The translations under genes were made by a program, and so were the position numbers. DNA of 64,000 nucleotides. Source: a virus. Lineage: Duplodnaviria; Heunggongvirae; Uroviricota; Caudoviricetes. Where the stretch lies: IMG/VR virus record IMGVR_UViG_3300021387_000074; one strand, written 5' to 3'. Under the pieces are notes generated by a model, which saw nothing but the letters and a program-made list of their open reading frames with translations, did no database searches and had not been told where the DNA came from. Positions 5,442 through 62,180 of this stretch are shown here, piece by piece. Numbering within the stretch: the first letter of the stretch is position 1; every line of letters begins with the position of its first letter.

Positions 5442-6209
5442 ATGAACTTTAAAGAACTATTCGACAAAGAGTTTCTTTACGAAAGTAAGAAAGAAGATAA
5501 AAAGTCAACTAAAATTTTTTATAAGTTTGATATAAATATAAAGAAAATAGACGAGGCAGAAGCCACACCAGGCCAACAGCCAGTTGACCAAGCAGCAGTT
5601 CCACAAACTGACCCAACAGCTCAGGTTCCAGTTGACCAGACAATGACTCCAACCGCGCCAGTTGATCAAACAGCAGTTCCACAAACTGACCCAACAGCGG
5701 CTCAGCCAGTGCCAGTAGAACAACCACCAGTTGATTTGTCTATACCTTTAGCATCTGTAGTAACAGAAGACGACGAAAAAGAAAGTGTAGAAATCAATGA
5801 TGAAGATAATATAATCAGAAAACTTGAAGGTGAAGTTGTTCTTTCTGAAGAAGAAGTTGACGAGATTCAAACAATCGAAGATATCATTACAAAATTGACA
5901 GAAACAAAAGTAGACGGTATAGAAGTTCTTGATGAGTTTACTGCAGACATCTTGCAAGTAATGGTAAACCCAGCAACACAGCAAATGCTTAAAGATAAGA
6001 TTGGTAAAGAAAGTACAATCTTCGCAGAGATTATCTATGGTAAAAAGAAGGAAGAATCAGCAGGTTTGAGAATTATTAAGAGAAAGAATTCAGAACTTCT
6101 TACAACTTCTATGATGATAGATAATAAAATTATAAACTCAAAATACAACAAGGAAACATTAGACAAAAGAATAACAGAATACAGAAACAGTAAATTTGAG
6201 CAAGATTAA
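5442..6209 (+). CDS. Putative virion/internal head protein with Gln/Pro/Thr repeat linker
   Basis: Starts MNFKELFDKEFLYE like the internal-protein set; PVDQ/PQTDPTA repeats; acidic. Confidence 0.55.
   Translation: MNFKELFDKEFLYESKKEDKKSTKIFYKFDINIKKIDEAEATPGQQPVDQAAVPQTDPTAQVPVDQTMTPTAPVDQTAVPQTDPTAAQPVPVEQPPVDLSIPLASVVTEDDEKESVEINDEDNIIRKLEGEVVLSEEEVDEIQTIEDIITKLTETKVDGIEVLDEFTADILQVMVNPATQQMLKDKIGKESTIFAEIIYGKKKEESAGLRIIKRKNSELLTTSMMIDNKIINSKYNKETLDKRITEYRNSKFEQD
5580..5698 (+). repeat. 41-bp in-frame direct repeat (PVDQxAVPQTDPTA)
   Basis: 5580-5620 and 5658-5698 differ at 2 positions. Confidence 0.9.
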
Positions 6210-6211
6210 TT

Positions 6212-6502
6212 TTGATTAGCGAAGTAGAGATTGCGAAGAAAGAACATTCCTCAAAAGACAAAAAGGTTGTAATTACTAAACCTAGCAACAGTTGTGCTTT
6301 TCTTCTTTACTTCGACAACGATATAATTAAGAAAAGTAAAGCATTTATATATCCACACACAACTTCTGGGATAAAAAAAGTAAATAAAGAACTTAACCAA
6401 GAATATAAGCTTTGGCTAAGATGTCTTTGGTATTACGGTTATCTAGAAGAAGATGATGTGCAATTACTAGAGTTTAAAAGACTTGACAAAAAGAGTAAAT
6501 AG
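6212..6502 (+). CDS. Hypothetical protein
   Basis: 96-aa ORF with TTG start filling the gap between two genes. Confidence 0.55.
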   Translation: MISEVEIAKKEHSSKDKKVVITKPSNSCAFLLYFDNDIIKKSKAFIYPHTTSGIKKVNKELNQEYKLWLRCLWYYGYLEEDDVQLLEFKRLDKKSK

Positions 6503-6510
6503 TTTATCCT
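6483..6510 (+). promoter_or_regulatory. Sigma70-type promoter for the sigma-like gene
   Basis: TTGACA-N16-TATCCT; shares GTTTATCCTATAC (6502-6514) with the - strand promoter near 30210. Confidence 0.6.
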
Positions 6511-6527
6511 ATACTTAGGAGTAATTG

Positions 6528-7304
6528 ATGGAATTAGATTTAGAATTAGAAGATGAAAACAATAATAATGATGAAATAATAATACAGCCTGATCCTGATT
6601 TTAGCAATGATGAGTCTTTATTGAATTCACTGAAAACAACTCATAAAGCACCAAAAGGCATGTATTTTGATGAGGATTATTTTGCAGACTTGGTTATAAA
6701 CAAATACTTACCAACAATTAAAAGAGATGAGAATGGCAAAATAATTAGTTCTGATAAAGTAGTAGAAAAAGAAGTACTGGCTAATATGCTATTAGTTGTT
6801 AATGCAGTTATTAATAAATATGGTATATGGCGCTTTGGCAAAATAGAAGTGCTACGTTCAGAAGGTTTAGCAGAGTGTTGGAGAAGTTTGCCAACATTTG
6901 ACCCTAGTAGGAAAAAGAAATTTTTCCACTTCTTAAGTTTAGTTACTAAATACCATTTAATAAATTTAACCAAAAAAGACAAAGAAATGAGAGAGGCTGC
7001 AGATATAGCGATTCAGCCTAATCTTGAAAGTAATATTTGTGTAAAGAATGAATTCTTCTTTGAAGATATGGAATGTGTCTTATTTGATATTATAGACGAG
7101 CACTTCCCCGAAAAAGAAAAACATGAAAAGTATATTGACTTAGCTTCCATACTTATGGAGTATGTAAGAGAAAACAAAATGATAATTGGAAAAAATGACT
7201 TATTCTCCACTTTTAGAGAATATGGATATAAAACAAGTGATTACAAAAAGTTTATAGCAGACATAGAGCCTTATAAACAACAACTCTATGAGCTAGCTTC
7301 ATAG
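6528..7304 (+). CDS. Phage late-transcription sigma factor (T4 gp55-like)
   Basis: SEGLAECWRSLPTFDPSRKKKFFHFLSLVTKYHLINL matches the sigma region-2 pattern (EG..C....FDP.K...F.Y); SD aggag. Confidence 0.65.
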   Translation: MELDLELEDENNNNDEIIIQPDPDFSNDESLLNSLKTTHKAPKGMYFDEDYFADLVINKYLPTIKRDENGKIISSDKVVEKEVLANMLLVVNAVINKYGIWRFGKIEVLRSEGLAECWRSLPTFDPSRKKKFFHFLSLVTKYHLINLTKKDKEMREAADIAIQPNLESNICVKNEFFFEDMECVLFDIIDEHFPEKEKHEKYIDLASILMEYVRENKMIIGKNDLFSTFREYGYKTSDYKKFIADIEPYKQQLYELAS

Positions 7305-7316
7305 TTACTCCTTCTG

Positions 7317-7338
7317 GGCCGCGGGTGCGGCCTTTTTT
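7317..7338 (+). terminator. Rho-independent terminator
   Basis: ggccgc-gggt-gcggcc followed by T6. Confidence 0.85.
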
Positions 7339-7352
7339 ATTAAGTTAAAATT

Positions 7353-9976: not shown

Positions 9977-10008
9977 AAAAGCGGGTATGTACCCGCTTTT
10001 ATTTTTTT
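9977..10008 (+). terminator. Rho-independent terminator
   Basis: aaaagcgggt-atgt-acccgctttt then T-rich run. Confidence 0.85.
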
Positions 10009-10021
10009 ATAAGTTAATAAT

Positions 10022-10273
10022 ATGAATTTTGCACAAGTAAAAACAATCGTTGATAAAGACGAAAAAGAAATAAAAGATACAACTCTAAATCAGGAGCAGA
10101 AATTAGCTCAGTCAGAAAATTTAGGAAAGGCTCTCCTTTCGCAATTAAAGAAAGAAGAAGGTCCACAGCACAAAACAACCACAAAGAAAAAGGCAACAAA
10201 AAAGCAGACCGCTAAGAAGGATGATAAAAAAGCAGAAAAGAAAGATGACAAAACTTCTAAGAACAAAAGATAA
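10022..10273 (+). CDS. Small protein with Lys-rich C-terminus (leaderless late gene)
   Basis: KTTTKKKATKKQTAKK tail, histone-like; AAGTTAA + 4 nt + ATG. Confidence 0.65.
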   Translation: MNFAQVKTIVDKDEKEIKDTTLNQEQKLAQSENLGKALLSQLKKEEGPQHKTTTKKKATKKQTAKKDDKKAEKKDDKTSKNKR

Positions 10274-13992: not shown

Positions 13993-14649
13993 ATGAACTT
14001 TAACGATTTGAAAGAAAAAGATTTAAGGGAAGAAATCCTTTCCTTAAACGAAGAAAACATTCATGATTTTTTCTCAGAAGAAAGAGAGATAGAAACTCTT
14101 TATGGAAATGTCGCCTATAATTATATTTATAATCAGGGCGACTATTTCTTGCTGGGTGAAGATAAATCATTTTCTTCGCTCGAACAAATGGTTAAGTATA
14201 TAAATGAGCAATATGACGATATGGTAGATTTGCCACTGACAGAAGAGTTAGTTCAAGCAAAGTTTAAATATCGTTCTAAGTATCCAAACAAAGGATACCA
14301 AATCCATGATAAAAGACCGAAAGTGATTGTATTAGATAATGATTATATTTATGATGGCAAAGGAAATGTAAAACCTGGACGTCATGATATTTTAGCATTT
14401 AATTTAAATTACTCAAAAGATAAAAAAACTGATAAGAGAGCAATAGATGAAATAGTTTCTTTTGCACATCTTCTTAAAAAAGAAAAGAAAGATGTTTATG
14501 AAAGAATTAAAAAGTTTTATCCAGAAGTAGTTAAAAATAATTTAAGATGTTATAAGCCACAGCAGATGTCTAAGATTAAAAGAAAAGAGGGCTGGTTTTA
14601 TAAACAGTGTAGTGTCGCAGATTTAGCACCTACAAACGAATGGGACTAG
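13993..14649 (+). CDS. Putative internal head protein containing a second gp2-like domain
   Basis: MNFNDL...LNEE...LTEE leader; FKY...HDKRPKVIVL...ILAFNLNY...RCYK parallels 10798. Confidence 0.45.
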   Translation: MNFNDLKEKDLREEILSLNEENIHDFFSEEREIETLYGNVAYNYIYNQGDYFLLGEDKSFSSLEQMVKYINEQYDDMVDLPLTEELVQAKFKYRSKYPNKGYQIHDKRPKVIVLDNDYIYDGKGNVKPGRHDILAFNLNYSKDKKTDKRAIDEIVSFAHLLKKEKKDVYERIKKFYPEVVKNNLRCYKPQQMSKIKRKEGWFYKQCSVADLAPTNEWD

Positions 14650-14665: not shown

Positions 14666-16696
14666 ATGAGTATAAGATATAAATATGTAAGGCTTCTTAC
14701 AGAAGGATATAATTTTTCAAATGCTGACGAAACAATCTCGGCAATTAAAGCAAATCAAGTAGGTGTAAAAGTAAATAGCTCATTTAAAGTCGCAATAGAA
14801 GAACAACCTAATTCTTTAAAGAGGGCCCTAAAACACTTTTTTGAAAAATGTGAACAATTAGGCATTAAAGAAACAACTTATGGGGTTCAACTGTTATTAT
14901 CAAAAACAGACTGTTTAAATAATAGTGATGATGAAGACGACGATGATTATTATCCAGAAAATAGTTTATTTTCTGATGTTATAAAGTCAGATGGTTTTTA
15001 TGAAATTCTTAAATCTTATAAAAAACCTTGGGTAAAAGAAATGCCAGCTTTCCAATCTTTAATGGAAAGAAAAAGCTGGAACTTCACAAGCCTTGATACA
15101 TTACACGAATTAGAGAAAGACATTCAAAGAGAACAGGGAAATCACGGAAAGAAATCAAAGGGTTCTGGAGAGATGCAAGATGTAAAAGTTCTCTATAATG
15201 ATGGAACTTGGAAACTCTTACAGCCAACTTCATTCCAAGGAGAAAAGGCAGCTGCCTTCTATATTAAAGATGGCAAAGAAACTCCAACTGAATGGTGTAC
15301 AAGATGTGATGAGTACTACTACAATCATTATACACAACTTGGGCCACTTTATATTATTAGAAATATGAAAAGTGGAAAATCTTATCAGCTTGCCTTTACA
15401 GAATATAGTGTAGAATTCCTTGACCAAAATGATGAAAAGGGAGACAAAGTTACAACTGGAGATTTAAATCCAATTCCAGATAATCTTTTAAAATTAATCA
15501 AACATCCAAAAAATGGCAGAACACTGTTAGATTATAAAACATCAAGAAATAAAGCACTTAGTGCTCCAGAAAAGAAAGGTTATTTAAAAACAGATAATGT
15601 TGGAACTGGCCCAGGTGATTTCAAATATGGCCCAACGGTACAACTAGATAACAATATTTGCAAAAAAGATATTTTGAATTTTTCTTATGATAGTTTTAGA
15701 GATTCTTTATCTGATTATTTTACAAGTTCAAAGCCAATACAGGTATCTGAAAAATATGTTAAAAGACATAAAGCAACAGCTTACTTTATAAAAGGTAAAG
15801 AAGAAGCCTTAATGGTTTTACAGACTTTGGGTAAAGAAGGAAAATCATTTGTAGATGGAACTATCTTGGAAACTAAAAAATTTCAAGACTTAACTCCTGA
15901 TGAAAAATATGATGTATATAGAGTTGCTCAAAAAGATTTTGGTGTAACAAAAAGCAGAGAAAGAGCTGAAATGGCCATAGATAGAAAAAATGGCTTGATG
16001 AAGAGATATAATACTAAATCAGAAAATATATCACAAGAAGACCATGATAAACTTGTTGATAATATAAACTCTAGATTGGACTTTAGTAAATCTAAATTGT
16101 TTAAAGGTTTAAATGGTATTTCTATTCCATATTTTGGAAGAACTGGTGAGTGGGGAACTAAGGCAATGTATGGTAAAACCTTAGTGAAAGATTTGAGTCT
16201 TATCCCAACAAGAGAGCTAGAAAGAGAACTACCACCTAATATGAGAAATTCAAGTGTTACGGTAATTTTTAAATATTTAGATGGTGAAACTAATCTTAAA
16301 GCTGCTGATACAGTTACTTGGAATAAAGCGAATGCTGCTATTTTGATAACTGGCTATGGTAATTATGGTTGTTTAAAACTTTCAAAAGAAGAGTTTGAAC
16401 TTTGTAAAAAAGTTGCTATTGAAATTCAAAAAGAATTTATTAAAGACCCAGATTATAGAAAATTAAACATGCAAAGAAAAATTGAGCAAGAAGCTCAAAG
16501 CCAAAAAGAAAACAGAGGTAAAATATTAACAAAGCAACAACTCGAAAATACAGTCGGAAAAGATATGGCCCATAGGCTAACACATCTTGATAACGAAAAA
16601 GCTGGAACAAGATTCCCAGTTCATGTTATGAAATCAATTAATCAAGCAACTCATAGACCAGATTTGTATGAGGAGGTAAATTATTTTGACTATTAA
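14666..16696 (+). CDS. Large multidomain putative internal head protein with YFDY tag
   Basis: LLTEG leader; EWCTRC...YY.HY..LGPLYII domain; ends YEEVNYFDY*. Confidence 0.55.
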   Translation: MSIRYKYVRLLTEGYNFSNADETISAIKANQVGVKVNSSFKVAIEEQPNSLKRALKHFFEKCEQLGIKETTYGVQLLLSKTDCLNNSDDEDDDDYYPENSLFSDVIKSDGFYEILKSYKKPWVKEMPAFQSLMERKSWNFTSLDTLHELEKDIQREQGNHGKKSKGSGEMQDVKVLYNDGTWKLLQPTSFQGEKAAAFYIKDGKETPTEWCTRCDEYYYNHYTQLGPLYIIRNMKSGKSYQLAFTEYSVEFLDQNDEKGDKVTTGDLNPIPDNLLKLIKHPKNGRTLLDYKTSRNKALSAPEKKGYLKTDNVGTGPGDFKYGPTVQLDNNICKKDILNFSYDSFRDSLSDYFTSSKPIQVSEKYVKRHKATAYFIKGKEEALMVLQTLGKEGKSFVDGTILETKKFQDLTPDEKYDVYRVAQKDFGVTKSRERAEMAIDRKNGLMKRYNTKSENISQEDHDKLVDNINSRLDFSKSKLFKGLNGISIPYFGRTGEWGTKAMYGKTLVKDLSLIPTRELERELPPNMRNSSVTVIFKYLDGETNLKAADTVTWNKANAAILITGYGNYGCLKLSKEEFELCKKVAIEIQKEFIKDPDYRKLNMQRKIEQEAQSQKENRGKILTKQQLENTVGKDMAHRLTHLDNEKAGTRFPVHVMKSINQATHRPDLYEEVNYFDY

Positions 16697-17550: not shown

Positions 17551-17979
17551 ATGAACTTTAGTGAAGTAGAAAAAATATTAGAAGAAGGTAAGTTTAAAAA
17601 GGCAGTAGCTGGTGCATTATTAGGCGCAACACTTGCAAGTGGCGCTATGGCACAAGAGGCTAAAGTTAGAACAAGAGGACCAGCAAGAGCTTCTTGGTAT
17701 GGTACTAATTATGAAGTTGACGATACTGCTCCACCTTTAGATTTAAAAGATACAATAATGCATTTACCAGAAAGAAATAAATCAGATACACTTTTGCTGT
17801 ATCAGATGACACTAAGCACTCTTGGAAATAAAAAAAGTGCTTATCTTAAAATTCAAAAACAATACTTAAATAAAAAAATCACAAGAGAAGAAGCTGTAAA
17901 AAAATTAGTAGATGGCGGAATTCTAAATGCCACCAGCGCCAAAGGGCAGCCGTATTTCTGGGATGACCTAGAAAGTTAA
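17551..17979 (+). CDS. Putative internal head protein with cryptic signal-peptide-like segment
   Basis: MNFSEVEKILEE|GKFKKAVAGALLGATLASGAMA|QE. Confidence 0.55.
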   Translation: MNFSEVEKILEEGKFKKAVAGALLGATLASGAMAQEAKVRTRGPARASWYGTNYEVDDTAPPLDLKDTIMHLPERNKSDTLLLYQMTLSTLGNKKSAYLKIQKQYLNKKITREEAVKKLVDGGILNATSAKGQPYFWDDLES

Positions 17980-17983
17980 CTGT

Positions 17984-18790
17984 ATGAACTTTGAAGATTT
18001 AATACTTAATGAACAAAAGAATATAGACTTTGATAAAATATACACAAAGCCAGAAATAGCAAAGATGTGCATTTCTAAATGCAATATAAAATCTTATGAT
18101 AGAATTATTGAGCCATCTGCTGGCTCTGGCGCTTTTTCTTCTCAAATACCAAATTGCGAAGCTTATGATTTAATGCCAGAAGACAATTCTATTAAAAAAC
18201 AAGATTTTTTAAAATTCAGCACAGATAAAGGAAACATACTTGTTATTGGTAACCCACCGTTTGGTCATGCAAATGATTTAAGTTTAAAGTTTATTAATAA
18301 TGCTGCTAAGTTCGCAAGAACTATAGCATTCATTCTTCCTAAATCTTGTCAAAAGGAAACATTTATAAACAGACTTGATAAAAATGTTCATCTCAGAAGA
18401 GTTGTAGAATTACCAAGAAACTCTTTCCTCATTAAAGGAGTTACTCCTTGTGATATAAGTTGCAACTTCTTTATTTTTGATGTTAAAAATAAAGAAAGAA
18501 TTAGGGCAGAGAAACCAATTACAAACGATTTTGTTTTTACAAGAGATAAAGAAAAGGCAGATTTTGCTATCTTAAGAAAAGGGAGTGGTGTTGGAAAATT
18601 ACTTACAAAAGATGATACCAAATACTCAGAAGCAAGTAAATATTATATTAAGTCAAATATAGGAAAGAGAGAACTTTGGAGAAGATTAATGACTGTAAAT
18701 TACCCAGAGGCAAGAATGACGCTCGCTTCTGATTCAATTTCACAGTTGGAGATAATTAGAAATTATAATTTAAAGTTTGGAGAAAAATAA
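17984..18790 (+). CDS. SAM-dependent amino (N6-A/N4-C) DNA methyltransferase
   Basis: Motif I IIEPSAGSGAF, motif IV VIGNPPFG, N-terminal DKIYT; no cognate endonuclease adjacent. Confidence 0.85.
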   Translation: MNFEDLILNEQKNIDFDKIYTKPEIAKMCISKCNIKSYDRIIEPSAGSGAFSSQIPNCEAYDLMPEDNSIKKQDFLKFSTDKGNILVIGNPPFGHANDLSLKFINNAAKFARTIAFILPKSCQKETFINRLDKNVHLRRVVELPRNSFLIKGVTPCDISCNFFIFDVKNKERIRAEKPITNDFVFTRDKEKADFAILRKGSGVGKLLTKDDTKYSEASKYYIKSNIGKRELWRRLMTVNYPEARMTLASDSISQLEIIRNYNLKFGEK

Positions 18791-19764
18791 TGAATTTTGA
18801 AGAAGTAGAAATAATTTTAGAAGAAATATATGGAAACGCTGGAATTGTTTATCATAGGGGCAACGAAAATAAACTTTCTAGGCTTCTTGAAAAAAATTAT
18901 GTTAATTATAACAAAGTAGATTTTGATAATTGGGATAAAGCTTTATATACAACTTATGATTTAAAATCCCAAATAAAAAATAGTTCTCAGAACATGAAAG
19001 CTGTTTATGGAAAATACATTATAAAGTTATATGTAAAAGGTATTAGAAATTTTTGGTTTTGTGATTATAAAACATATTCTTTATATAATTCTTGCACTTT
19101 GGAAAACTGGAAACAACAACAATTTAATAAATTTAAGATACCGAAAGAATTTCAAAGTGTTTTGATGGGGAGTGATAAAAATGAAACTGCACATCATTCT
19201 GTCATTAGTAGATTTTTTGAAAAACAAAAATATTTAGCAACAAGGGTAAAAGGAATAGAATATAATTCATCTGCTGATGGTCACTGCTTGTTAATTTATG
19301 ATTGGTCTACTGCTGTTCCAATTTCATATAGCGAAGATGAAGGAAAGTCTTGGAAAAAAATTGAAAAAAATAAAACTTTATTTCAAAAAAACAAATTAAA
19401 AAATAATGATTATATTGAATTTTATAAAGAAAAAGTAGTAAGCCAAAACAGTAAGCCAAAAATAGAGGCTGTAGTTAAACAAAATGGAGATTGTGATTTC
19501 TCAAGAAAAGCTATTAAAACTTTAAGTGGAAAGAACTTGCCAGAAATAATAAATGGAAACTTTAACTGTAGTTATAATTTATTAACAAATTTAGATGGAG
19601 CACCAAAAAAAATAAAAAAAGATTTTATTTGTCATGGTAACAAATCACTAAAAAAAGCAAATATAATTAAGTATTTACAAGTAGCAGATATTGGTGGAAA
19701 AATTATTACAGATTTTGGAGAGTTTGATTCTAAAGCTGAAGCTTTAAAAAATTTTCCCTATTAA
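18790..19764 (+). CDS. ADP-ribosyltransferase-fold protein with leucine-rich-like repeat and NFPY tag
   Basis: IVYHRG...ALYTTYD...VYGKYIIKLYV...KGIEY...LLIYD pattern; GNFNCSYNLLTNLDGAPKKI repeat; ends ALKNFPY*. Confidence 0.5.
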   Translation: MNFEEVEIILEEIYGNAGIVYHRGNENKLSRLLEKNYVNYNKVDFDNWDKALYTTYDLKSQIKNSSQNMKAVYGKYIIKLYVKGIRNFWFCDYKTYSLYNSCTLENWKQQQFNKFKIPKEFQSVLMGSDKNETAHHSVISRFFEKQKYLATRVKGIEYNSSADGHCLLIYDWSTAVPISYSEDEGKSWKKIEKNKTLFQKNKLKNNDYIEFYKEKVVSQNSKPKIEAVVKQNGDCDFSRKAIKTLSGKNLPEIINGNFNCSYNLLTNLDGAPKKIKKDFICHGNKSLKKANIIKYLQVADIGGKIITDFGEFDSKAEALKNFPY

Positions 19765-20153: not shown

Positions 20154-20729
20154 ATGTATTTTCAAGAAGTAGTAAATATTATAGAAGATGAAGAATTAAA
20201 GAACGAAATAAAAAACCTGAAAGATGAAGCAAAAAAGAAAATAAAAGAGCACAAACAAGAAATAAAATATAAAAAACTTGAAAAAAAATATGATATAAAA
20301 CAAACAAAAAAATATTACAAAGAAAAGAAAAGATATGGATTTCCAGACATTCCAGAAGAAATAAAAAAAGAAACAAATTTTATTCTAGAACAGCTCAACA
20401 AAATTGCAAGAAAAGAACATTTTAAAGAGCATTTTGAGCTAAAAAAAATAAGATATGAACCTGGCGATAAATTAGAAAAAGATTTTACAAGTGAACCAGA
20501 TTTTTCTGCAACTTTTACTCCAGAAACTTATTTTTCTCATAACAACTTATTTTATATAATAAGAAACAAAGACTTTATAGAAAATATAAAGAAAAATTGC
20601 AAATATTTTTTAGATATAGATTCTGATTATACTATATTTTATTTTAAAGTTCCAGAAGGTTTGAAAAAGCTTTATGAAACTGAATTTACAAGAACAAAGC
20701 ATGGTGAAAAGCATAAATATGAGGAATAG
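20154..20729 (+). CDS. Putative internal head protein
   Basis: MYFQEVVNIIEDEE leader; SD aggag. Confidence 0.55.
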   Translation: MYFQEVVNIIEDEELKNEIKNLKDEAKKKIKEHKQEIKYKKLEKKYDIKQTKKYYKEKKRYGFPDIPEEIKKETNFILEQLNKIARKEHFKEHFELKKIRYEPGDKLEKDFTSEPDFSATFTPETYFSHNNLFYIIRNKDFIENIKKNCKYFLDIDSDYTIFYFKVPEGLKKLYETEFTRTKHGEKHKYEE

Positions 20730-20737: not shown

Positions 20738-21982
20738 ATGGATTTTCAAGACGCAATAAACATAGTAGAAGGAATTCAAGCCCTTGAGAAAGGAAAAAAA
20801 GGATGTATCCTTTTTGATATAGATGACTGCTTACTTCAGGCAGATTCAAAGGCTATTGGTATTATAAAAAGAGAACCTGGAAAAGACCCAGTTAGACTTT
20901 CTACAGACCAATACGCAAAAGACCCCGATGCAGCAACTCATAGAGATTGGTTCTCTTATGAAGAGTTCAGAGACCCAGAAAAAGTATACGCATCAATCGT
21001 AGGCGGAACACCACTTCTTAGACAGATGAGATTGCTTGACGCACATATCAAAGCAAACTATGATATCGCTTTCTTGACAGCTAGAGGCTTGCAAGACGTT
21101 GTAGATGCTGCTTTAAGAGCATTCTTGAAAGTAAAAGACGCTAATGGTAATTTATCTCCTATTGGTGATAGACTTAAGTCAGAAATTTCTGCAGCAGTAA
21201 ATGACGAAATTAAAGCATACCCTGGAGCAAACGACCCAGAGAAAAAAGGTATGGTAATCAAGAACATTTGCCAGAAATATGACAAGGTTAAGTTTGTTGA
21301 TGATGATTTGAAGAATGTAAACTTCGCCAAATCTTTGAAGTTGCCAAATCTTCAAGTTATTCTTGCTAACAAAGCACCACTTACAAGAGGAATAACAGAA
21401 GACGTTTTAGAGGAAGAAATTTCTAAAAAGGTCACAAAGAAACTTGACAAACTTGAGAAGTTAGCAGAAAAGTTTAATAAACAAGCAAGGCAAGCAAATG
21501 CCAAAATGATGGTTTATTTAAGATCAAAAGAAGGCAAAGAACTTTCAGAAAGCAAACAGGAAAAACTTTTCAAAGTAGCTCTTCAATTAAATAAAGCCCA
21601 GCAGGAATTAAAGAATATAAAAGAATTAAAAAAATTCAACGATAAAACTAGTCCTGTATCAAAAGAAGACGCTAAGAAATTAGAAAAAGAAATAATGGGA
21701 GTTATAAAAGAAACAAAAAGACAAATAAAAGATAGTATGGACGATCCAATAGTTAAAACAATTCTTAGAGATGCTGGAGTTTTATCTATATTCGTTGGTT
21801 TGCCTTCAATTTTGTCAGCAATTATATTTGATGGAATTCCAACTCTTGGACCAGCTGGTGTTGCTGTTGGTGTTTATGATGTTGGTGTAGCTCACCATAA
21901 CAGAAAAGCTGCAAGATATAGAGCCTTAGGAACCACAAGAGAAATAAAATATTCTTCTAAAAAGAAGGAGACAGAAGACTAA
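20738..21982 (+). CDS. HAD-superfamily phosphatase fused to coiled-coil and C-terminal TM region
   Basis: ILFDIDDCLL (motif I), FLTARG (II), PEKK (III), FVDDD (IV); leader MDFQDAINIVE; internal ITEDVLEEE. Confidence 0.75.
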   Translation: MDFQDAINIVEGIQALEKGKKGCILFDIDDCLLQADSKAIGIIKREPGKDPVRLSTDQYAKDPDAATHRDWFSYEEFRDPEKVYASIVGGTPLLRQMRLLDAHIKANYDIAFLTARGLQDVVDAALRAFLKVKDANGNLSPIGDRLKSEISAAVNDEIKAYPGANDPEKKGMVIKNICQKYDKVKFVDDDLKNVNFAKSLKLPNLQVILANKAPLTRGITEDVLEEEISKKVTKKLDKLEKLAEKFNKQARQANAKMMVYLRSKEGKELSESKQEKLFKVALQLNKAQQELKNIKELKKFNDKTSPVSKEDAKKLEKEIMGVIKETKRQIKDSMDDPIVKTILRDAGVLSIFVGLPSILSAIIFDGIPTLGPAGVAVGVYDVGVAHHNRKAARYRALGTTREIKYSSKKKETED

Positions 21983-22323: not shown

Positions 22324-23157
22324 ATGACAATTAACGATATATTAAATGAAGTAAATGTAGAATTTGGTAATGGACAATCTTTAGCTGTTACTGATGCTCT
22401 CAAACAGAGAACTACTTATGATAAAACTGGAGCCAAAGACGAGCTTTATACAAAGACGGCAGATTTAGCAACTCGTAGAGTAAATACTAAAGGTAGTGTT
22501 GCAAACGTTATTGAATATCTTAAAAAGAAAGGTGTTTGGGACAAGGTTGCAACCAAGCAGAGTTTTAGAACTACAGATTTAGTATTCAAAGCTGATGGTT
22601 CTTGTCAGGTTAATTATGACGATGGTGGTGGAATTTTAATTCCAAAAGAAGTTGTAAATGTGACAACGCCAATAGCACAAAAAACATTTGTTCAGAAATT
22701 TAGAGAAAAAATTCAGGCTTCTACAATTACTGAAGAAATCTTAGAAGAAGACGTAAAAGAAAAAATTGCAAAATTTGTAAAAACTAAACTAATCCCATGC
22801 GCTGTTGTTGCTGGAATTATGGCAGGCGGAGTTGCCGCAGTTAGCGCTTCAACTAAAAGCATGGTAAACAGCGTTAAGAAAACTGTTAAAATTTTAACCG
22901 CAAACAAAGATAAAGTGCAAGCAGTAGTAGGAAACGATAACATTTCTTATGACGCAAATAAAAATATTTTAACGGTAAATGGAAAGTCAAAAAAAGCAAG
23001 CGACAGTGTTCAGGATGCTTGGTGGGACGCTTTCCCAGACGAGACAGATGTAGAGTTTACAGACGAAAAGGTTGGTAGTGATACACTACAAAGACTGCAG
23101 CCTGCCCAATTAAATCCAACTGGACGCAACATTCAAGAAGATTATTTTCCATATTAA
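22324..23157 (+). CDS. Putative internal head polyprotein with YFPY tag
   Basis: MTINDILNE leader, internal ITEEILEED followed by a hydrophobic segment, ends IQEDYFPY*. Confidence 0.6.
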   Translation: MTINDILNEVNVEFGNGQSLAVTDALKQRTTYDKTGAKDELYTKTADLATRRVNTKGSVANVIEYLKKKGVWDKVATKQSFRTTDLVFKADGSCQVNYDDGGGILIPKEVVNVTTPIAQKTFVQKFREKIQASTITEEILEEDVKEKIAKFVKTKLIPCAVVAGIMAGGVAAVSASTKSMVNSVKKTVKILTANKDKVQAVVGNDNISYDANKNILTVNGKSKKASDSVQDAWWDAFPDETDVEFTDEKVGSDTLQRLQPAQLNPTGRNIQEDYFPY

Positions 23158-23229: not shown

Positions 23230-24372
23230 ATGATTACAGAAAATTCTTTAAAAATATTATTGGAAGGAAAACCAACTTTACAAAGAGATATAATGCTTAA
23301 AGCAAAACCGTTTTTAAAAAAATATGGAATTGATTTTGACTTAAGTAATTATCAGAATGATGGCTATTTAAGAGCTGGCGGATACAAATTTTGGTTTGAT
23401 GATGAAGAAAGAGATTTCAGAACAAATGAGCCAAAATATGCTGGCAAAGGTTTTGCTGACATAAGAGAATTGTTAGCATATGCTCTTGATATAAAAGAAG
23501 CAGAAAAAGAACATAGAAATACTTGGGGGCTTCAAACTTATTTGGCTAGATCAAAACCAAACAAAGGATATAGCAACAATCTTTATAAGAAAGTTGTATC
23601 AGAAGAAGTTCTTGAAGAAAGTGAACTTTCAAGAGCAAAAGCAGATGTTGCTTACAGAGAACTAGAAAAGAAAATTAAAGAAAAAGGCTGGGCCATTAAC
23701 CAATATATGAATGATAGAAAGGAACGTTCTAGACTTTCACCAAACGAGATGTTTGTAAATAAAGGAAACATTGGTGGTCAATTATATATCTTAGATTTAA
23801 AAACTGGTATTGCAAAGCCAGAAGGTGAAATTAATGTTGGTAGAGACCAAGAGTTAATGACACTTTTTAAGACTGCAAGACACTATTTCCAAAAGAATGA
23901 TGGTAATGGAAATTATCCTGAAAACTCTTATCAAACAAGACTCTTTTCTAAATCTGAATACGAAAAAGGAAAAAAATATGAAAGAGAAGGAAAATACAAT
24001 CCTGCTTATGATTTATCAGATAACAGATATAAATCCAATAGCCATGTTCGTTTAAGAGATAGAAATTATGCATCAAAAGCACTTAAAGAAGAAACTATTG
24101 TAGAGGGTTCTCATCACGCAAAATATTCACCAGCAATTAATTATAAATGTGTTAATAATTATTTGATTAAGGCGAGAAAAGCACTTAAAGAAGGAAATAT
24201 AAAAGAAGCTGAAAAGTGGGCTTGGGAAGCTAATATAACAATGCACGAAGATGAAATGCAAGGGCCAGGAGTTGCTGCTGATAAAAATGCTTATAACATT
24301 TTTCACAAGCAACTTAGCAATATACATAGCGCTATTTTAGCAGCAAAAAAAGCAAATAAGGAGAACAACTAA
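23230..24372 (+). CDS. Putative internal head polyprotein (three modules separated by x-x-E sites)
   Basis: KILLE|G, EEVLEE|S, EETIVE|G. Confidence 0.55.
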   Translation: MITENSLKILLEGKPTLQRDIMLKAKPFLKKYGIDFDLSNYQNDGYLRAGGYKFWFDDEERDFRTNEPKYAGKGFADIRELLAYALDIKEAEKEHRNTWGLQTYLARSKPNKGYSNNLYKKVVSEEVLEESELSRAKADVAYRELEKKIKEKGWAINQYMNDRKERSRLSPNEMFVNKGNIGGQLYILDLKTGIAKPEGEINVGRDQELMTLFKTARHYFQKNDGNGNYPENSYQTRLFSKSEYEKGKKYEREGKYNPAYDLSDNRYKSNSHVRLRDRNYASKALKEETIVEGSHHAKYSPAINYKCVNNYLIKARKALKEGNIKEAEKWAWEANITMHEDEMQGPGVAADKNAYNIFHKQLSNIHSAILAAKKANKENN

Positions 24373-24995
24373 TGAACTATTTTATGAAATGTCAACTTTT
24401 ATCTGAAGGATTTAAGCATGATCAACTTATAGAAGAGGATTGGGAAGAACTTAAAAAGCAGCTTGCCGATTTATATGCAAAAAACGAAATAACTCAAAGA
24501 CAAGTTCAAACAAGACTTGCCAGAGCTGGCTGTACTTATGCTGCTCATCACGCTCAGAAAATTGCAGATGAGAGAGGTGGAGAAAGACAAGCAATTCTTG
24601 ATAAAATAGAAAAAGAAAAACAAGAAAAGGCAATGAGAGCCGCTGCAGAAGCTCAGGCTGCTAAACATCAAACAAGAGGTTCTGCGGCCGCTGAATACAA
24701 CAGCGAAGCAAGCAGAGCTGCTTGGCTAAAAGCTGCTAATGAATATAGAGCAAGAAAAGAAAAAGAAAGACAGAATCTTTCTCATAGCTTTACAAAAGCT
24801 TGGAACAATCACGAAGTTGGTAATATCGTAAAAGCAAAAGTTGTTAAAGAAAACGTATTTGAAAATATGTTTAATAAACTTTGCGAAATGGAAGAAGAGT
24901 TAAATATTGAACTTACAGAAGAACAGGTTGCTAATCTTTTCGAAGAAGTATTTGAAGAAATAGTTGAAGAGAAATCTAACTATTTTAATTACTAA
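24372..24995 (+). CDS. Putative internal head protein with YFNY tag
   Basis: LLSEG...LIEED leader, Ala-rich helices, ends IVEEKSNYFNY*. Confidence 0.6.
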   Translation: MNYFMKCQLLSEGFKHDQLIEEDWEELKKQLADLYAKNEITQRQVQTRLARAGCTYAAHHAQKIADERGGERQAILDKIEKEKQEKAMRAAAEAQAAKHQTRGSAAAEYNSEASRAAWLKAANEYRARKEKERQNLSHSFTKAWNNHEVGNIVKAKVVKENVFENMFNKLCEMEEELNIELTEEQVANLFEEVFEEIVEEKSNYFNY

Positions 24996-25017: not shown

Positions 25018-25938
25018 ATGAAAACATTGAATGAAGGTGAAGCACTTAATAAAATAAAGAAAGGTTTAAAGGGAGCAGCTATCGGTGCTGGAGTACTTGG
25101 AGCAACTGCTGCAGGTATAACTGGCTATGGTGCTGTTAATGGCGTAAAACAAGCAAGAGCAGAAAAAGCAGCTCTGGAAAGACAGGCAGAGGAAGAAAGA
25201 GCAGCAAAGGATAAGTTTGCAAATGATCTTTCTCAAAATCTTCACAAAAGAGGTGTTGAAGTATCAGATTATGCAACAACAAGCGCTAGAGGTGCTAAAG
25301 AAATAGCTGCTTTTGCTAAAGCTTACGAAAATGGAACCTTTGAAGGTGACGTAGACGATAAAGTTAACGAGCTTTGTGATAAATATGGAGTAGATAATTA
25401 TATTAAAGTTCTTAATGGTCTTGAGGTTGCAAACAAAGCAAAAACCAGATTAAAAACTGCAGCTATAACTTTTAAAACAAATGCTAAATTAGCAGCAAAA
25501 GAAGGTGCAACAAAAGTAAAAGAAGGCGCAGTAAAAGTAAAAGAATTCTTACAGAAAAAAGCTAACTCAGCAATGCAAGAGGCAAAAAACAAAAAAGTAT
25601 TGCATGATGAAAAAAAGATAGCAGCAGAAATGAAAAATTATGTTGCATCATTGGCTGAAGAAATGAATGGAGCCTCACATACAATATATAATGCATATAG
25701 AGATGATTCTAGTTCTTGGGATCTGATTCCTTTTTGCCAAAAAGAATATTTAAAAGGGCTTATTTTAAGAGAGGGCGAAGAAAATGTAAAAAAAGCCATT
25801 GGACTTTTAAAAACTCAAGATTTTGGAGAACGAAAAATTACTTCTCAGTATGTTTGGAGTCATCAATACAAAAAAGCTGTTGAAGAGCTAAAGGATAGTG
25901 GTTTTTTAAAAGAAGAAGTAAATTATTTCCCTTACTAA
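25018..25938 (+). CDS. Putative internal head/ejection protein with YFPY tag
   Basis: Start moved to ATG 25018 (SD ggag); MKTLNE|G then GAAIGAGVLGATAAG; ends LKEEVNYFPY*. Confidence 0.6.
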   Translation: MKTLNEGEALNKIKKGLKGAAIGAGVLGATAAGITGYGAVNGVKQARAEKAALERQAEEERAAKDKFANDLSQNLHKRGVEVSDYATTSARGAKEIAAFAKAYENGTFEGDVDDKVNELCDKYGVDNYIKVLNGLEVANKAKTRLKTAAITFKTNAKLAAKEGATKVKEGAVKVKEFLQKKANSAMQEAKNKKVLHDEKKIAAEMKNYVASLAEEMNGASHTIYNAYRDDSSSWDLIPFCQKEYLKGLILREGEENVKKAIGLLKTQDFGERKITSQYVWSHQYKKAVEELKDSGFLKEEVNYFPY

Positions 25939-25982: not shown

Positions 25983-25998
25983 ATTTTAAGTTAATTAT

Positions 25999-31081: not shown

Positions 31082-31085
31082 TTGT

Positions 31086-48345: not shown

Positions 48346-48918
48346 ATGACAAGTTTTAAAGATTATTATGAAACAAAAGAAGCAGAGAGTGTCCTTGAAG
48401 AAGGATTCGCTAATGTTCTTGGAAGTATATTAGGAATTGGAACAACTGGTGTTTTATCAGCTTGGATAGCCGCTTTACTTTTTAAAGGTGGTGTTGGAGC
48501 AATTAATAGTATTGCAAAAACAATGGGTAAAGAGGGTATTACTTTTAAAAAGAATTTTAAAGAAGCCAATAAAGATAATCCAGCGGTAAAAAAAGAACTT
48601 AACGAAATGGAAGTTCTTAAGAATAAATATCAGGAAGAAATCAGCCCACTTCTTAATGATGTAAAAGCAAAAAGATGGAACGCTGCTAGAGAAGACTATC
48701 AGAACTTACCACTTGATTTAAAAAATTCTGTAGAAATTAAAAGAATAATCATAGAGGAAGTTATGAAAGTTTGTGGCGTTGCTATAATTGATGAGCCAAC
48801 TCCTGGATCAGAATCATATCAGGCTGTAAGAAAAATCATTGATTTAAAAACAGCAAAGGCAACCGCAGAAGCAACAAAAGCACAGATTAAAAAGTACATA
48901 ATTGAAAAGGAAAACTAA
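48346..48918 (+). CDS. Putative internal head protein with cryptic membrane segment
   Basis: SVLEE|GFANVLGSILGIGTTGVLSAWIAALLF; leaderless after AAGTTAA. Confidence 0.55.
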   Translation: MTSFKDYYETKEAESVLEEGFANVLGSILGIGTTGVLSAWIAALLFKGGVGAINSIAKTMGKEGITFKKNFKEANKDNPAVKKELNEMEVLKNKYQEEISPLLNDVKAKRWNAAREDYQNLPLDLKNSVEIKRIIIEEVMKVCGVAIIDEPTPGSESYQAVRKIIDLKTAKATAEATKAQIKKYIIEKEN

Positions 48919-53195: not shown

Positions 53196-54293
53196 ATGGA
53201 TTTTAAAAATTATGTAAGAATGATGCTTGAGGCTGAAAAAGCAAAAGATCAAGACGAAGAGAGAACAGAAGATCAGGACGAAGAAGATGAAGACGACGAT
53301 TCTGATGAAGATGAAGACGATGAGGCACAGGCATCTGTAAAAACAAATAAAACTGGCTGCACTGGTAGTGAAGCATCTTGCAAAACAGATGATGAAGATG
53401 AAGACGATTCTGATGAAGATGATGACGAGGATGAAAAATGTCCAGATTGCGGAAAATCACCTTGCGAGTGTAAGAAAGAAAATCTTAAAGAAGCAATGAT
53501 TTACTCTGCAAGATATGCAAGAGGCGAAAAACAAGCTGTTTTGTCAGAAGAAACAAGAATTCTTTGTGAAGACATCAAAAACAACTCAGCTTCTAAATAC
53601 CTTTCAAAACTTTCTAAGAAAGCTGAAAAAGAAGCAGCTAAATATTCTAAGAAAGGAATGAGTAAAGAAGCAGCAACTTCTAAGAAAGCAGCATCTGCAC
53701 TTAAAGAAGCTTCAAACAAACTTTACAAATGTGAAACAAGATATAAGGCTGGAGACCCAACAGCTAAGAAAGAATATAAATCAATTTGTAAACAGTATTC
53801 TAAAGAATTAAAAACTCTTGGAAAAACTGCAAGAGGTCTTAAGGGACTTATCTTCACTTTGATTTCTGGTGCAATTTTGCTTGGTGCAGTTGGAACAACA
53901 GTTGTTGCAAATAACGCTGACGGTGGTATTATCGACAAGATTTCTAGAGCAATTACAGAATTCAAAGGTGGAGACACAAAGAGAGGCTTGTCAATTCTTG
54001 GTGATATTGCAGAAAACGACAAAAACTTTGTAAAGAGTGTTGTTGATGGTTCTGAATTTAAAGGAACTGACTGGGCTGGAAAGAAAGCAGACTTTGATGC
54101 TCAGGACGCTGGATGGGATAATGCAGCACACAGAGATAACAACATAGGTTATAAAGCTGGTAAAGCAATTGGAGATACTGCAAGAGCTGCTGGTAAAGGT
54201 GTAAAAGATACTTGGAGAGGACTCACACAGGGAGCTAGCAAAAGTATAGAAGACAATTCTAGAGGACTTAGACAAGGACTTTCTGGAAAATAA
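53196..54293 (+). CDS. Putative internal head protein with acidic tract, Cys knuckle and TM segment
   Basis: MDFKNYVRMMLE|A leader; D/E run; CPDCGKSPCEC; LIFTLISGAILLGAVG. Confidence 0.55.
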   Translation: MDFKNYVRMMLEAEKAKDQDEERTEDQDEEDEDDDSDEDEDDEAQASVKTNKTGCTGSEASCKTDDEDEDDSDEDDDEDEKCPDCGKSPCECKKENLKEAMIYSARYARGEKQAVLSEETRILCEDIKNNSASKYLSKLSKKAEKEAAKYSKKGMSKEAATSKKAASALKEASNKLYKCETRYKAGDPTAKKEYKSICKQYSKELKTLGKTARGLKGLIFTLISGAILLGAVGTTVVANNADGGIIDKISRAITEFKGGDTKRGLSILGDIAENDKNFVKSVVDGSEFKGTDWAGKKADFDAQDAGWDNAAHRDNNIGYKAGKAIGDTARAAGKGVKDTWRGLTQGASKSIEDNSRGLRQGLSGK

Positions 54294-59585: not shown

Positions 59586-59605
59586 AAGTTTTACCTCTTG
59601 AGAAA

Positions 59606-60039: not shown

Positions 60040-60044
60040 GTTTA

Positions 60045-60653
60045 TTACATTGGTACGAAAGTGGCGCACATGTTTGTTTGCGCTAAGCAGTATTCGGCAA
60101 GTTCTTCCTTACCTGCTTTAGTAAGTTCTTCCGCTAATGTACCAACTGCCTCTCTTACTTTTTCTTGAGAATCAGGGTCTTCGTTAAGAAGTTCACCCAC
60201 AGCCTTAACAAGGCTCATTGTTGTTCTGAGGATAGGATCTGGCTTTTTGTCCGCGCCAACTTTTTGAAGCTCGCGAATAAGCCAGTCCATCATTTTATTA
60301 TTTAAATTACCGTTAAGCCATTCTTGTAAAAAGCAAACAGTTTCATAAACAAAATCACTCTCGTTAGGTATATAAGTAGTAAAAAACTCTTTAAAGAATC
60401 TTTTGAAAATATCTTTGTAAGTTTCTACAAAGCCACTCCAATTTACAACCCAAACACCATTAGAATTTATTTTTTCAAACTCAACGCATTTGTAAATTGT
60501 TTCAATAAACTGATAATACTTAGTATTTGTTGCTAATGAATATGAATCGCTCCAATCCCATTCAACGGTTACGATGCAATCATATACAGTATCACTAGTG
60601 TTTTCGCTTACATGGTCTTGGTGTTTCATAAAATCATAAAGAGTCATAAACAC
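60045..60653 (-). CDS. Hypothetical early protein
   Basis: 202 aa, SD aggagg. Confidence 0.75.
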   Translation of the reverse strand: MFMTLYDFMKHQDHVSENTSDTVYDCIVTVEWDWSDSYSLATNTKYYQFIETIYKCVEFEKINSNGVWVVNWSGFVETYKDIFKRFFKEFFTTYIPNESDFVYETVCFLQEWLNGNLNNKMMDWLIRELQKVGADKKPDPILRTTMSLVKAVGELLNEDPDSQEKVREAVGTLAEELTKAGKEELAEYCLAQTNMCATFVPM

Positions 60654-60656
60654 CTC

Positions 60657-61661
60657 CTATTCTGCAGCTTCGAGTCGTCTCGCTGCACGAAGCTTTCCCA
60701 TTTGTCTGTCGTTAAAAGCCTCATCAACACGCTCTGCGTAAATCCGAGCAATATCTGGTCTACCTATTTCTTGTAAAAGGCCTCTAATACATTCGTGATA
60801 GTCTTCAACATTATCTTTGTATCTGTCGCCCATTTCTTCAATAAGATAGAACATTTCTGAAGATAATTTTTCAGCAACATCGACATTTTCTTTGTAATCA
60901 CCTATCTTAGCAAATGGATCTACGAGTTCTGTGTATTCTTGTTTTCCATATAAATCCCAAACGCCAATCTTTTCGTTTTCGTCCACTTTATAATTGCTAA
61001 ATCTATCTGACTGCAACTCAATACTAACATTTACTTCGATATCACTGATTGCTTTATTAATGTAGTCTTTAAAGATTTTTGGAGTAATTTTCTTCTCTTT
61101 AAGAAGCTTTTCACATAATACAGTTTTGAAGTTTTTCTCAAACTGTTTTTTTACTTTCAAAAAATAATTAGTAGCAACTTTTGGGTCTTCTTTAATTTTT
61201 TTATACTCTTCAAAAGAAATGTCTAAAGTATAATCCCAAATACCAATAGTAATTTCTTCGATATTGAAAATATCTTTGCTATCTGCTTCTGTATCGTTGT
61301 GCATTACATTATGCTCAGCTTCTGAAAACGAACCTGCATAGGAAATCTCCTTACCATTTTCGTTAACAAGTTTAGGATTTATTTTTTCTACATCTATTTT
61401 ATTATCGCAATTAGGTCTTTCAAAATAGAAAGTTTCATTATCGCAAGTTGGCTTAACTCTTATTTTAAGACTAAAGCTTGCAGGTATAAACTGAATATCG
61501 CGTGTAGGTCTAAGCATAGTACGAGGATCGAAATCGTTCGCAGTCCAATACCTACTGTTTGTGCTATAACAATTATCTTCATAGTCAAGCCATGATGTAG
61601 AAAGTGAATTATAATTGTCTTTCCAAGCGTATATCGCATCTCTAAAATCATCTGGATTCAT
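60657..61661 (-). CDS. Hypothetical early protein
   Basis: 334 aa, SD aagga, own promoter. Confidence 0.75.
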   Translation of the reverse strand: MNPDDFRDAIYAWKDNYNSLSTSWLDYEDNCYSTNSRYWTANDFDPRTMLRPTRDIQFIPASFSLKIRVKPTCDNETFYFERPNCDNKIDVEKINPKLVNENGKEISYAGSFSEAEHNVMHNDTEADSKDIFNIEEITIGIWDYTLDISFEEYKKIKEDPKVATNYFLKVKKQFEKNFKTVLCEKLLKEKKITPKIFKDYINKAISDIEVNVSIELQSDRFSNYKVDENEKIGVWDLYGKQEYTELVDPFAKIGDYKENVDVAEKLSSEMFYLIEEMGDRYKDNVEDYHECIRGLLQEIGRPDIARIYAERVDEAFNDRQMGKLRAARRLEAAE

Positions 61662-61692
61662 AATTTCCTTCCTTCTTTTTACTTCTTAGGAA

Positions 61693-61721
61693 ATTATAAC
61701 ACGAAAGTGATTTTTTGTAAA
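61693..61721 (-). promoter_or_regulatory. Early promoter
   Basis: TTTACA-N17-TATAAT with extended TGn. Confidence 0.8.
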
Positions 61722-62180
61722 TTATTTCTCTTTGCGTTCCTCTTTGGATTTGTTCTTATTTTTGTTATAGTTTCCGAAATCGTGTTTTCTATATTTTTGC
61801 ATATAATGTTTGAAACATAGTTTGTGAGCATAATGTTCATTACCACAACCTGGCACAGAACATTTAAAATGCTTTCTTGCATTTGGTTCTACACGACAAT
61901 GCTCTGCTCTGCTTAGGGCAACTACGTTCTCTTTTCTGTTGTCGTGCTTATCTTTATTCTTATGATGTGAAATTCTATTATCTCCGAATTTTAAACCCGC
62001 AGCTACTCTATGTGGGTATTCCCAATAGCCGTGAATATGAGTTCCATGCTCTTTATTATAAGCGGCCGCTTCTTCTTTTGACATTTCAACCCAATGTCTT
62101 TCATAATCTGAAGCTTTTACGTGCTTAGCTTCGTCTAAAATCTCAGCTTCTTCTTTGTCTAACAGTTCGTCTAAGTTCAT
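61722..62180 (-). CDS. HNH endonuclease-like protein with zinc finger, under a late promoter
   Basis: ISHHKNKDKHDNRKENVVALSRAEH (HNH) and CSVPGC...KLCFKHY; AAGTTAA + 4 nt + ATG. Confidence 0.75.
   Translation of the reverse strand: MNLDELLDKEEAEILDEAKHVKASDYERHWVEMSKEEAAAYNKEHGTHIHGYWEYPHRVAAGLKFGDNRISHHKNKDKHDNRKENVVALSRAEHCRVEPNARKHFKCSVPGCGNEHYAHKLCFKHYMQKYRKHDFGNYNKNKNKSKEERKEK

Follow-up and report, generated by a model that had tools for sequence, protein, structure and literature searches.

Introduction

In phage T4, the proteins IPI-III and Alt carry capsid-targeting sequences (CTS) of 10-20 residues, which dock them on the prohead core and which the protease gp21 removes (Mullaney and Black 1996; PMC9026906, PMC7411985, PMC9958956). 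The T4 CTS reads MKTYQEFIAE (PMC8442874), and the gp21 family cuts after Glu in a short motif (PMC9026906). With Asp at P1, T4 cargo is still targeted but no longer processed (PMC9026906). In the phiKZ-like giants 201phi2-1, phiKZ and SPN3US, many head proteins are likewise cut after Glu by a gp21-related protease, at several sites each (PMC5694885, PMC10052503). Proteins that a phage injects act first in infection, for example against host defences or for host takeover, and they are nearly impossible to recognize in uncultured phages. The stretch of DNA analyzed here (IMG/VR record IMGVR_UViG_3300021387_000074; 64,000 nt, hereafter the window) comes from an uncultured rumen phage, and a series of its late genes encode proteins that begin with a short leader ending in a hydrophobic-x-Glu motif.

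The reading that we favor, with a probability of about 0.7, is that these leaders belong to a T4-type capsid-targeting and maturation system with polyprotein-like cargo in this 233-kb phage. In outline, some 20 late, mostly basic and mutually unrelated proteins would start with an acidic amphipathic propeptide of 6-21 residues, which would dock the cargo onto the prohead core during assembly. A gp21-family S77 serine protease would then cut after Glu in [ILV]-x-E and remove the leaders, would separate the modules of three proteins (20738, 22324 and 23230) at [ILV]-x-E-E hinges, and would probably trim a C-terminal x-N-Y-F-[PND]-Y tag serving as a second address, while the mature proteins would be kept in the head and delivered into the host together with the DNA. 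Core binding, cleavage, head retention and ejection are all steps that we infer from sequence. So described, the basic mechanism would be the one already known from the CTS/gp21 system of T4, here expanded and modular; what is new is the exchange of modules at hinges, the equivalence of leader junction and internal hinge, and the E-site before the C-terminal tag.

The scaffold that bears the window (ENA metagenome SHIW14-1, scaffold_35) has 233,198 bp, and records L041 and L042 are pieces of it as well. The window is AT-rich (~31% GC) and its genes are tightly packed; the + strand up to ~54.8 kb forms a late morphogenesis block, beyond which the - strand carries early genes. No near-identical phage was found in GenBank by megablast, and IMG/VR gave no exact match to a 40-mer. 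Leaders and C-terminal tags were counted in seven related genomes, the relatives having a portal or large terminase (TerL) 42-94% identical to that of the window; in the sister phage (record G005) TerL is 94% identical. L061 is a distant 232-kb phage from another sample. In the following, genes are named by their lower coordinate, an arrow (↓) marks a predicted cut, and coordinates are collected in Table 1.

A tight leader family on late proteins

A tight family of N-terminal leaders exists in the window and is specific to the late genes. An earlier reading of the window from its letters alone (the sequence-only reading) had proposed that 16 proteins share leaders of the form M-x-F...[ILV]-x-E, and the two halves of this pattern behave differently. 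An [ILVM]-x-E ending within residues 5-22 is present in 26 of 61 + strand proteins, in 10 of 20 - strand proteins and in 30% of internal sequence windows, i.e., near chance and equally common on the two strands (Fisher p = 0.61); equal frequency among - strand genes is what the sequence-only reading had named as refuting it, a test that the tight leader alone passes. By contrast, M-x-F starts are found in 15 of the 61 + strand proteins and in none of the 20 on the - strand (frequency of F 4.6%; p = 7e-8). When residues 2-12 of the N-termini were compared pairwise in an unsupervised manner, 17 pairs scored at least 18 with BLOSUM62, against 0.94 expected and a maximum of 5 in the controls (200 draws of segments following an internal Met), and the proteins involved fall into two clusters, with 6 and 5 members. 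Across the seven related genomes, a strict regular expression (regex) for the leader matched 26 of 252 late-strand proteins, none of the 92 other-strand proteins and 2 of 1434 internal Met controls; such a scan, by profile or by regex, proved specific to late-strand N-termini. The commonest leader type is M-[NDK]-F-x-[ED]-[LVA]-x-x-[IL]-[ILV]-E-[E]. Because leaders vary in length, a position-specific scoring matrix (PSSM) in fixed register is too rigid for them and scores 39862 and 53196 below 0.

All 16 N-terminal strings quoted in the sequence-only reading are present where it had placed them, and the starts of 25018 and 39862 match public gene calls. Ten of these proteins belong to the similarity family (5442, 13993, 17551, 17984, 18790, 20154, 20738, 39862 and 61722, plus 53196, which does so by regex only), and 27952 joins a similarity cluster without having M-x-F. 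The remaining five (14666, 22324, 23230, 25018 and 48346) have leaders of other types, which are supported by conservation of the junction in homologs and not by M-x-F. Two carriers, 10022 and 24372, had not been listed. The carriers are not paralogs, as they have no mutual similarity past the leader, and they include DNA methyltransferase-like and HAD/PNK-like proteins. In 15 of 18 cases the mature part is basic (pI 8.3-10), and the leaders are mostly acidic.

Fixed junctions behind changing leaders

In the 14666 family (64 clusters), the residues around the predicted cut are nearly constant, with L/I/V at P4 in 61, L/I at P3 in 62, E at P1 in 63 and G/A at P1' in 60 clusters; the same family has 49 distinct leaders of 3-23 aa, and pairwise identity is 29% in the leader vs. 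50% in the first 40 mature columns. The 39862 family has a fixed [IL]-L-E↓K-R joint, which stands behind 11, 16 or 17 leader residues, and in the 48346 family a linker of varying length precedes a kept [VI]-x-E↓[GS] joint. Orthologs of 48346 start with MKTFKEFYEE, which is identical to the T4 CTS at 6 of 10 positions, a score that none of 1519 controls reached. In the 18790 family (52 clusters), the same mature start follows either one of five leader types, MKTLNE included, or a whole upstream module. Judged from these families, the leader is a separable piece that ends at a fixed joint.

The AlphaFold2 (AF2) models of 14666 and 18790 have a predicted local distance difference test score (pLDDT) of 83 and 74 overall, respectively, with the leader below 50 in both. 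Residues 1-10 of 18790 have a pLDDT of 35; in 14666, values fall under 50 at the leader (1-12), at the C-terminal tag (664-676) and in two short loops in between, and nowhere else. Leaders and C-terminal tag are predicted to be unstructured.

The cargo array directly upstream of the terminase gene is hyperplastic in comparison with the sister phage, in spite of the near-identity of TerL: homologs of 10022, 17551, 18790 and 20154 are missing from the sister phage, where the flanking genes are 60-96% identical. Leaders are found on new cargo in L032, G006 and L061. The last of these has the same system, and two adjacent, unrelated genes, methyltransferase (MTase)-like and HAD (L061:8467-9938), share there an identical 11-residue leader, which suggests homogenization of leaders within a genome, as for IPII and IPIII of T4.

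Internal hinges and module exchange

The sequence-only reading had also pointed to Glu-rich motifs inside three proteins and had taken some cargo to be polyproteins. The motifs are in place (ITEDVLEE in 20738, ITEEILEE in 22324, and LLE↓G, VLEE↓S and IVE↓G in 23230), and the polyprotein idea gains from the finding that relatives gain or lose modules exactly at the marked E-sites and that leader-bearing modules are elsewhere fused at the predicted cut site. The 20738 protein has 414 aa; its homologs of 212-217 aa end immediately ahead of ITEDVLEE, and an extra coiled-coil and hydrophobic module follows directly after this motif. The 154-aa sister form of 22324 diverges directly after the equivalent hinge, and at this point homologs carry a hydrophobic module with the C-terminal tag, the bare tag, or the mature module of either 23230 or 18790. 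In 23230, a 162-aa insert between V-L-E-E↓S and I-V-E↓G is missing from the 218-aa sister form.

Two kinds of fusion tell even more. In P0086, the N-module of 22324 is joined via V-L-E-E↓G to mature 23230 (77% identity, E = 1e-31), exactly at the end of the 23230 leader, and in P0085 the same N-module is joined via I-N-E-E↓I to mature 18790 (55% identity, E = 2e-76), at the 18790 leader junction; the latter fusion is found in at least 9 further clusters, on contigs of up to 230 kb. Because both fusions join at leader junctions, a module can have a leader of its own or follow another module, the motif at the joint being the same. The cargo has 24 internal [ILV]-x-E-E motifs, vs. 7.4 expected (z = 6.7), and no such enrichment is seen in the remaining late and early genes. 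Module exchange exactly at the predicted cut sites suggests how payloads diversify.

A C-terminal tag behind the same motif

Ten proteins of the window, encoded between 13511 and 39852, end in x-N-Y-F-[PND]-Y (13511, 14666, 18790, 21984, 22324, 24372, 25018, 27952, 38969 and 39433), a pattern expected by chance on ~0.2 of 322 proteins. In the seven genomes, [ILVM]-x-E stands directly before the tag in 26 of 35 distinct tails (background 11%; p = 2e-18); 14666, for example, ends in L-Y-E-E followed by V-N-Y-F-D-Y. In two families (20 and 24), homologous proteins bear either the N-terminal leader or the C-terminal tag. These features fit a C-terminal propeptide that would be trimmed by the same protease, and in T4 both Alt and gp21 are also processed at the C-terminus (PMC9026906). 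Equally, the tag, being aromatic, may be a substrate for one of the radical-SAM enzymes that these phages encode.

A broader idea, held tentatively and at somewhat under even odds, is that the prohead-protease site acts as a universal joint at which leader, hinge and C-terminal tag are interchangeable, so that modules would pass from phage to phage by recombining there and would enter the capsid on their own leader or behind another module. If this is true, a large group of uncultured T4-related phages would use two-address loading (N-terminal CTS and C-terminal N-Y-F-P-Y), and the complete injected proteome of that group would be predictable from sequence.

Protease and scaffold candidates

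No gene for a prohead protease of the gp21 kind was found within the window. The sequence-only reading had expected it outside, and a T4 gp21-type gene is indeed encoded on the same scaffold (212 aa, L042:5076-5714), scoring 45.9 bits against Pfam S77 (PF03420; curated cut-off 27), keeping the GELEH and FSTR motifs and weakly matching the T4 gp21 structure 5jbl. This gene is far from the portal gene: it is found in a baseplate module, on the opposite strand, ~26 kb upstream of where the window begins. Its counterpart in the sister phage scores 58 bits in Pfam and matches phrog_207 at 6e-35.

The protein of 37722-38804 has 19 [ILVM]-x-E sites vs. 11.8 expected and, because this is found in an acidic protein after the portal, it is taken as a candidate scaffold. 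It has no family match in PHROGs or Pfam, and none was found by phmmer against PDB sequences.

Two further genes with peptidase-like features were noted. A ClpP-family gene (PF00574; L055:540-1196) is located ~8-9 kb past the window end, in an early-gene block near AAA+ genes and genes of 695 and 758 aa; as a maturation protease it was set aside for its early-gene context and mismatched known specificity. Inside the late block, a conserved pair on the opposite strand (29294-30188, -) encodes a 242-aa and a 59-aa protein. The former has a weak Peptidase_C39_2 match (19.7 bits), and its L061 homolog has a recorded match; this candidate was set aside for its sub-threshold score and, again, a known specificity that does not fit.

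Alternative explanations

Several observations weigh against the T4-type reading. A major capsid gene of the gp23 type was looked for by tblastn with the gp23 homolog of Flavobacterium phage immuto and, on seven relative records, with Pfam Gp23, and did not turn up in ~96 kb from this phage (window 1-54778, L041 and L042) or in 103 kb of sister DNA. Gene 10022 has a leader but no canonical E-site (its analog in L061 ends L-T-E↓P). Single [ILV]-x-E sites predict little because the generic motif is common everywhere, and neither the density of internal [ILV]-x-E nor that of [ILV]-x-E-[GSA] separates cargo from other genes. The conserved residues at the junctions could partly reflect constraints of the fold. 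Lastly, the specificity of the S77 enzyme for Glu is presumed by carry-over from T4, and the genome encodes other candidate processing enzymes (ClpP-like, weakly C39_2-like and radical-SAM).

Among the rival explanations, the one that survives best, unlikely as it is, holds that nothing is cut: the leaders would be assembly or targeting helices, the E-rich hinges flexible linkers or recombination joints, and the proteins would be built in at full length. The exchange of modules at hinges needs just a permissive linker and repeated GAA-rich DNA, 42 head proteins of SPN3US are not cut (PMC10052503), and the missing site of 10022 agrees with this explanation too. However, L/I at P3 and E at P1 are near-invariant while the flanks vary, which matches what the protease family encoded on this scaffold is known to prefer, and the same motif sits directly ahead of the C-terminal tag.

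A second and distinctly improbable explanation is that the tags direct proteins elsewhere (membrane, tail or baseplate) or keep hydrophobic segments soluble before assembly. Such segments begin or lie within the mature parts of 17551, 25018, 48346, 22324 and 53196, and the protease gene is found within the baseplate module. On the other hand, proteases of the gp21 type work inside proheads (PMC9958956), the tagged genes cluster with terminase, portal and scaffold-like genes, and the mature fragment of one processed ejection protein of SPN3US includes a transmembrane segment at its N-terminus (PMC5694885).

Very improbable is also that a modifying enzyme, e.g., the radical-SAM protein of the late block (31086-31994; 65.7 bits), of which relatives have more (420-458 aa) and for which the aromatic C-terminal tag could be a substrate, recognizes the shared ends as tags; the N-terminal leader has no conserved Cys, Ser or Thr, an entire protein module can take its place at the junction, 31086-31994 has no match to a SPASM domain, and the carriers are large folded proteins. 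Finally, it is scarcely credible that the likeness of the leaders is a by-product of translation-start or promoter constraints in the DNA, or chance, since, although AAGTTAA-N4-ATG starts are found on many late genes and the loose motif is at chance level, the carriers have three start contexts (Shine-Dalgarno (SD)-type, leaderless AAGTTAA-N4-ATG and stop-overlapping), synonymous variation of codon 2 places the signal at the peptide level, the similarity spans 11-12 residues and the junctions are conserved at 35% identity.

Other features of the region

Table 1. Predicted leaders and hinges and other features of the window (positions in the 64,000-nt stretch; ↓, predicted cut).
Feature	Position	Strand	Basis and remarks
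Leader of 5442-6209, 14 aa, L-Y-E↓S	5442..5483	+	similarity cluster; junction kept in sister phage and in distant L012 homolog
Leader-like start of 10022-10273 (candidate)	10022..10063	+	cluster member; mature part very basic; gene absent from sister phage
Leader of 13993-14649, about 21 aa, L-N-E-E↓N	13993..14055	+	similarity cluster, homolog junctions, regex
Leader of 676-aa cargo gene 14666-16696, 13 aa, L-L-T-E↓G	14666..14704	+	junction logo of 64 clusters; AF2
Leader of 17551-17979, I-L-E-E↓G	17551..17586	+	similarity cluster, profile, homologs; hydrophobic segment next
Leader of DNA methyltransferase-like gene 17984-18790, L-N-E↓Q	17984..18013	+	phrog_5172, phrog_799; leaders of orthologs differ (e.g., L061)
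Leader of 18790-19764, I-L-E-E↓I	18790..18825	+	52 homolog clusters; C-terminal LRR-like domain, N-F-P-Y end
Leader of 20154-20729, I-I-E↓D	20154..20186	+	similarity cluster, profile; gene absent from sister phage
Leader of 20738-21982, I-V-E↓G	20738..20770	+	similarity cluster, profile; N-module HAD/PNK-like (phrog_415)
Hinge ITEDVLEE in 20738, aa 219-226	21392..21415	+	module border among homologs
Short leader of 22324-23157, I-L-N-E↓V	22324..22350	+	kept in 23 homolog clusters; not of M-x-F type
Hinge ITEEILEE in 22324, aa 135-142	22726..22749	+	module border among homologs
Leader of 23230-24372, L-L-E↓G	23230..23265	+	leader kept and mature part diverged in G001, G006
Hinge VSEEVLEE in 23230, aa 123-130	23596..23619	+	left border of insert
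Hinge LKEETIVE in 23230, aa 285-292	24082..24105	+	right border of insert
Leader of 24372-24995, L-L-S-E↓G	24372..24407	+	junction kept in three relatives with changed leaders; C-terminal tag at end
Six-residue leader MKTLNE↓G of 25018-25938	25018..25035	+	identical leader before 18790-type module in P0134
Large terminase gene	25999..27930	+	phrog_2 2e-37; cargo array directly upstream
Leader of 27952-29259, L-L-E↓A	27952..27975	+	junction kept in four relatives and L061; gene end V-T-E-E + V-N-F-F-N-Y
T4 gp20-type portal gene	34981..36990	+	phrog_213 4e-71; PF07230
Acidic helical 360-aa protein after portal, candidate scaffold (gp22 analog)	37722..38804	+	position, site count
Leader of basic 140-aa protein 39862-40284, I-L-E↓K	39862..39912	+	orthologs keep junction
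Leader of 48346-48918, V-L-E-E↓G	48346..48402	+	homolog junctions; hydrophobic segment next
Leader of 53196-54293, M-L-E↓A	53196..53231	+	regex match; orthologs identical in leader; weak in PSSM
Leader of HNH-like gene 61722-62180, L-D-E↓A; sole - strand carrier	62130..62180	-	cluster member; HNH_3; G001 ortholog

For most of the cargo no family was found in PHROGs and Pfam. Searches with phmmer against PDB sequences gave no match for 27952, the AF2 model of 14666 had no fold match at E <= 0.001, and that of 18790 had no Foldseek match. Residues 222-324 of 18790 are a middling match to a leucine-rich repeat (LRR)-like solenoid (Z 6-7, VIA-align on the model), the number of repeats varying among homologs (317-559 aa); an ADP-ribosyltransferase fold for the N-domain of the same protein is neither supported nor excluded. 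The protein of 53196-54293, encoded between the sheath gene and the next tail gene, has an Asp/Glu-rich stretch of ~80 residues, Cys pairs, a basic coiled-coil region and a hydrophobic segment.

Genes for a gp13-type neck protein and a tail sheath are also present in the window, and its portal protein is just ~30% identical to that of the closest GenBank phages. Against this background of T4-type genes (those for portal, terminase, gp13, sheath and protease), the negative search for a gp23-type gene stands out. A DXD glycosyltransferase-like gene and the radical-SAM gene occupy 30245-31994, between terminase and portal. A repeated cassette is formed by glycosyltransferase paralogs at 3581-4438 and 12715-13506 (31% identical) and by the small genes 9736-9957 and 12225-12776, both of which start M-A-N-I-A-N-F-E. 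Many late genes, terminase included, have AAGTTAA plus four bases ahead of their ATG (e.g., at 10007-10021, 17969-17983 and 25984-25998), and so has, at 62181-62195 (-), the sole leader gene on the - strand, 61722; other late genes have AAGTTAA further upstream, together with an SD-like site.

Significance and comparison with known systems

An address and a cut site that can be read from sequence would let metagenomes yield the injected proteome of this group of rumen jumbo phages. The predicted payload would include methyltransferase-like and phosphatase/kinase-like enzymes, an HNH nuclease, proteins with LRRs, and modules active on membranes. These short tags might in addition be tried as packaging handles, as was done with the T4 CTS.

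Five features that define the T4 CTS/gp21 system are present at the sequence level. Here too, a short N-terminal propeptide (about 10-20 aa) is common to otherwise unrelated, mostly basic cargo proteins and ends, at the sequence level, in a hydrophobic (L/I)-x-Glu motif; a gp21-family prohead protease and a gp20-type portal are encoded; one leader family, MKTFKEFYEE, approaches the T4 CTS itself; and the cargo varies between close relatives while the leader persists, the cargo genes being hyperplastic like the T4 internal-protein loci (PMC9026906). By contrast, the main leader consensus here is M-N-F-x-E-V-x-x-I-L-E-E, the cargo includes multi-module proteins with internal hinges, an aromatic C-terminal tag stands behind the same site, the gene for the protease has been displaced to the baseplate module (a gene order also unlike that of Flavobacterium phage immuto), and no gp23-type capsid gene is located near the portal. 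With ~20 predicted carriers, vs. four ejection proteins in T4, the payload can be called unusually large, as the sequence-only reading had it; the term does not hold against the phiKZ-like jumbo phages, 201phi2-1 having 19 cleaved head proteins (PMC9026906).

With these giants the system shares the (here predicted) cut after Glu, the multiple sites per protein and the hydrophobic segments at the N-termini of mature proteins. In the phiKZ-like phages, however, P3 is small (A/S/G-x-E) and the propeptides have mostly 100-250 residues, whereas P3 is L/I/V here and the leaders have 6-21 residues, as in T4; in the 14666 family, P3 is L/I in 62 of 64 clusters and no leader is longer than 23 aa or shorter than 3.

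For injected cargo of several modules, the closest concept is that of the polyvalent proteins (Iyer et al. 2017, PMC5512222), which carry several effector-like modules per polypeptide, are encoded among late virion genes and were proposed to be injected with the DNA. Polyvalent proteins are much larger (2-15 domains), and their processing has been ascribed to their own peptidase domains (PMC5512222); in the multi-module cargo described here no such domain was seen in Pfam scans, and just some of the modules have recognizable domains. Unlike polyvalent proteins, the multi-module cargo of this phage consists of two or three small modules joined by short hinges that bear the motif of the prohead protease.

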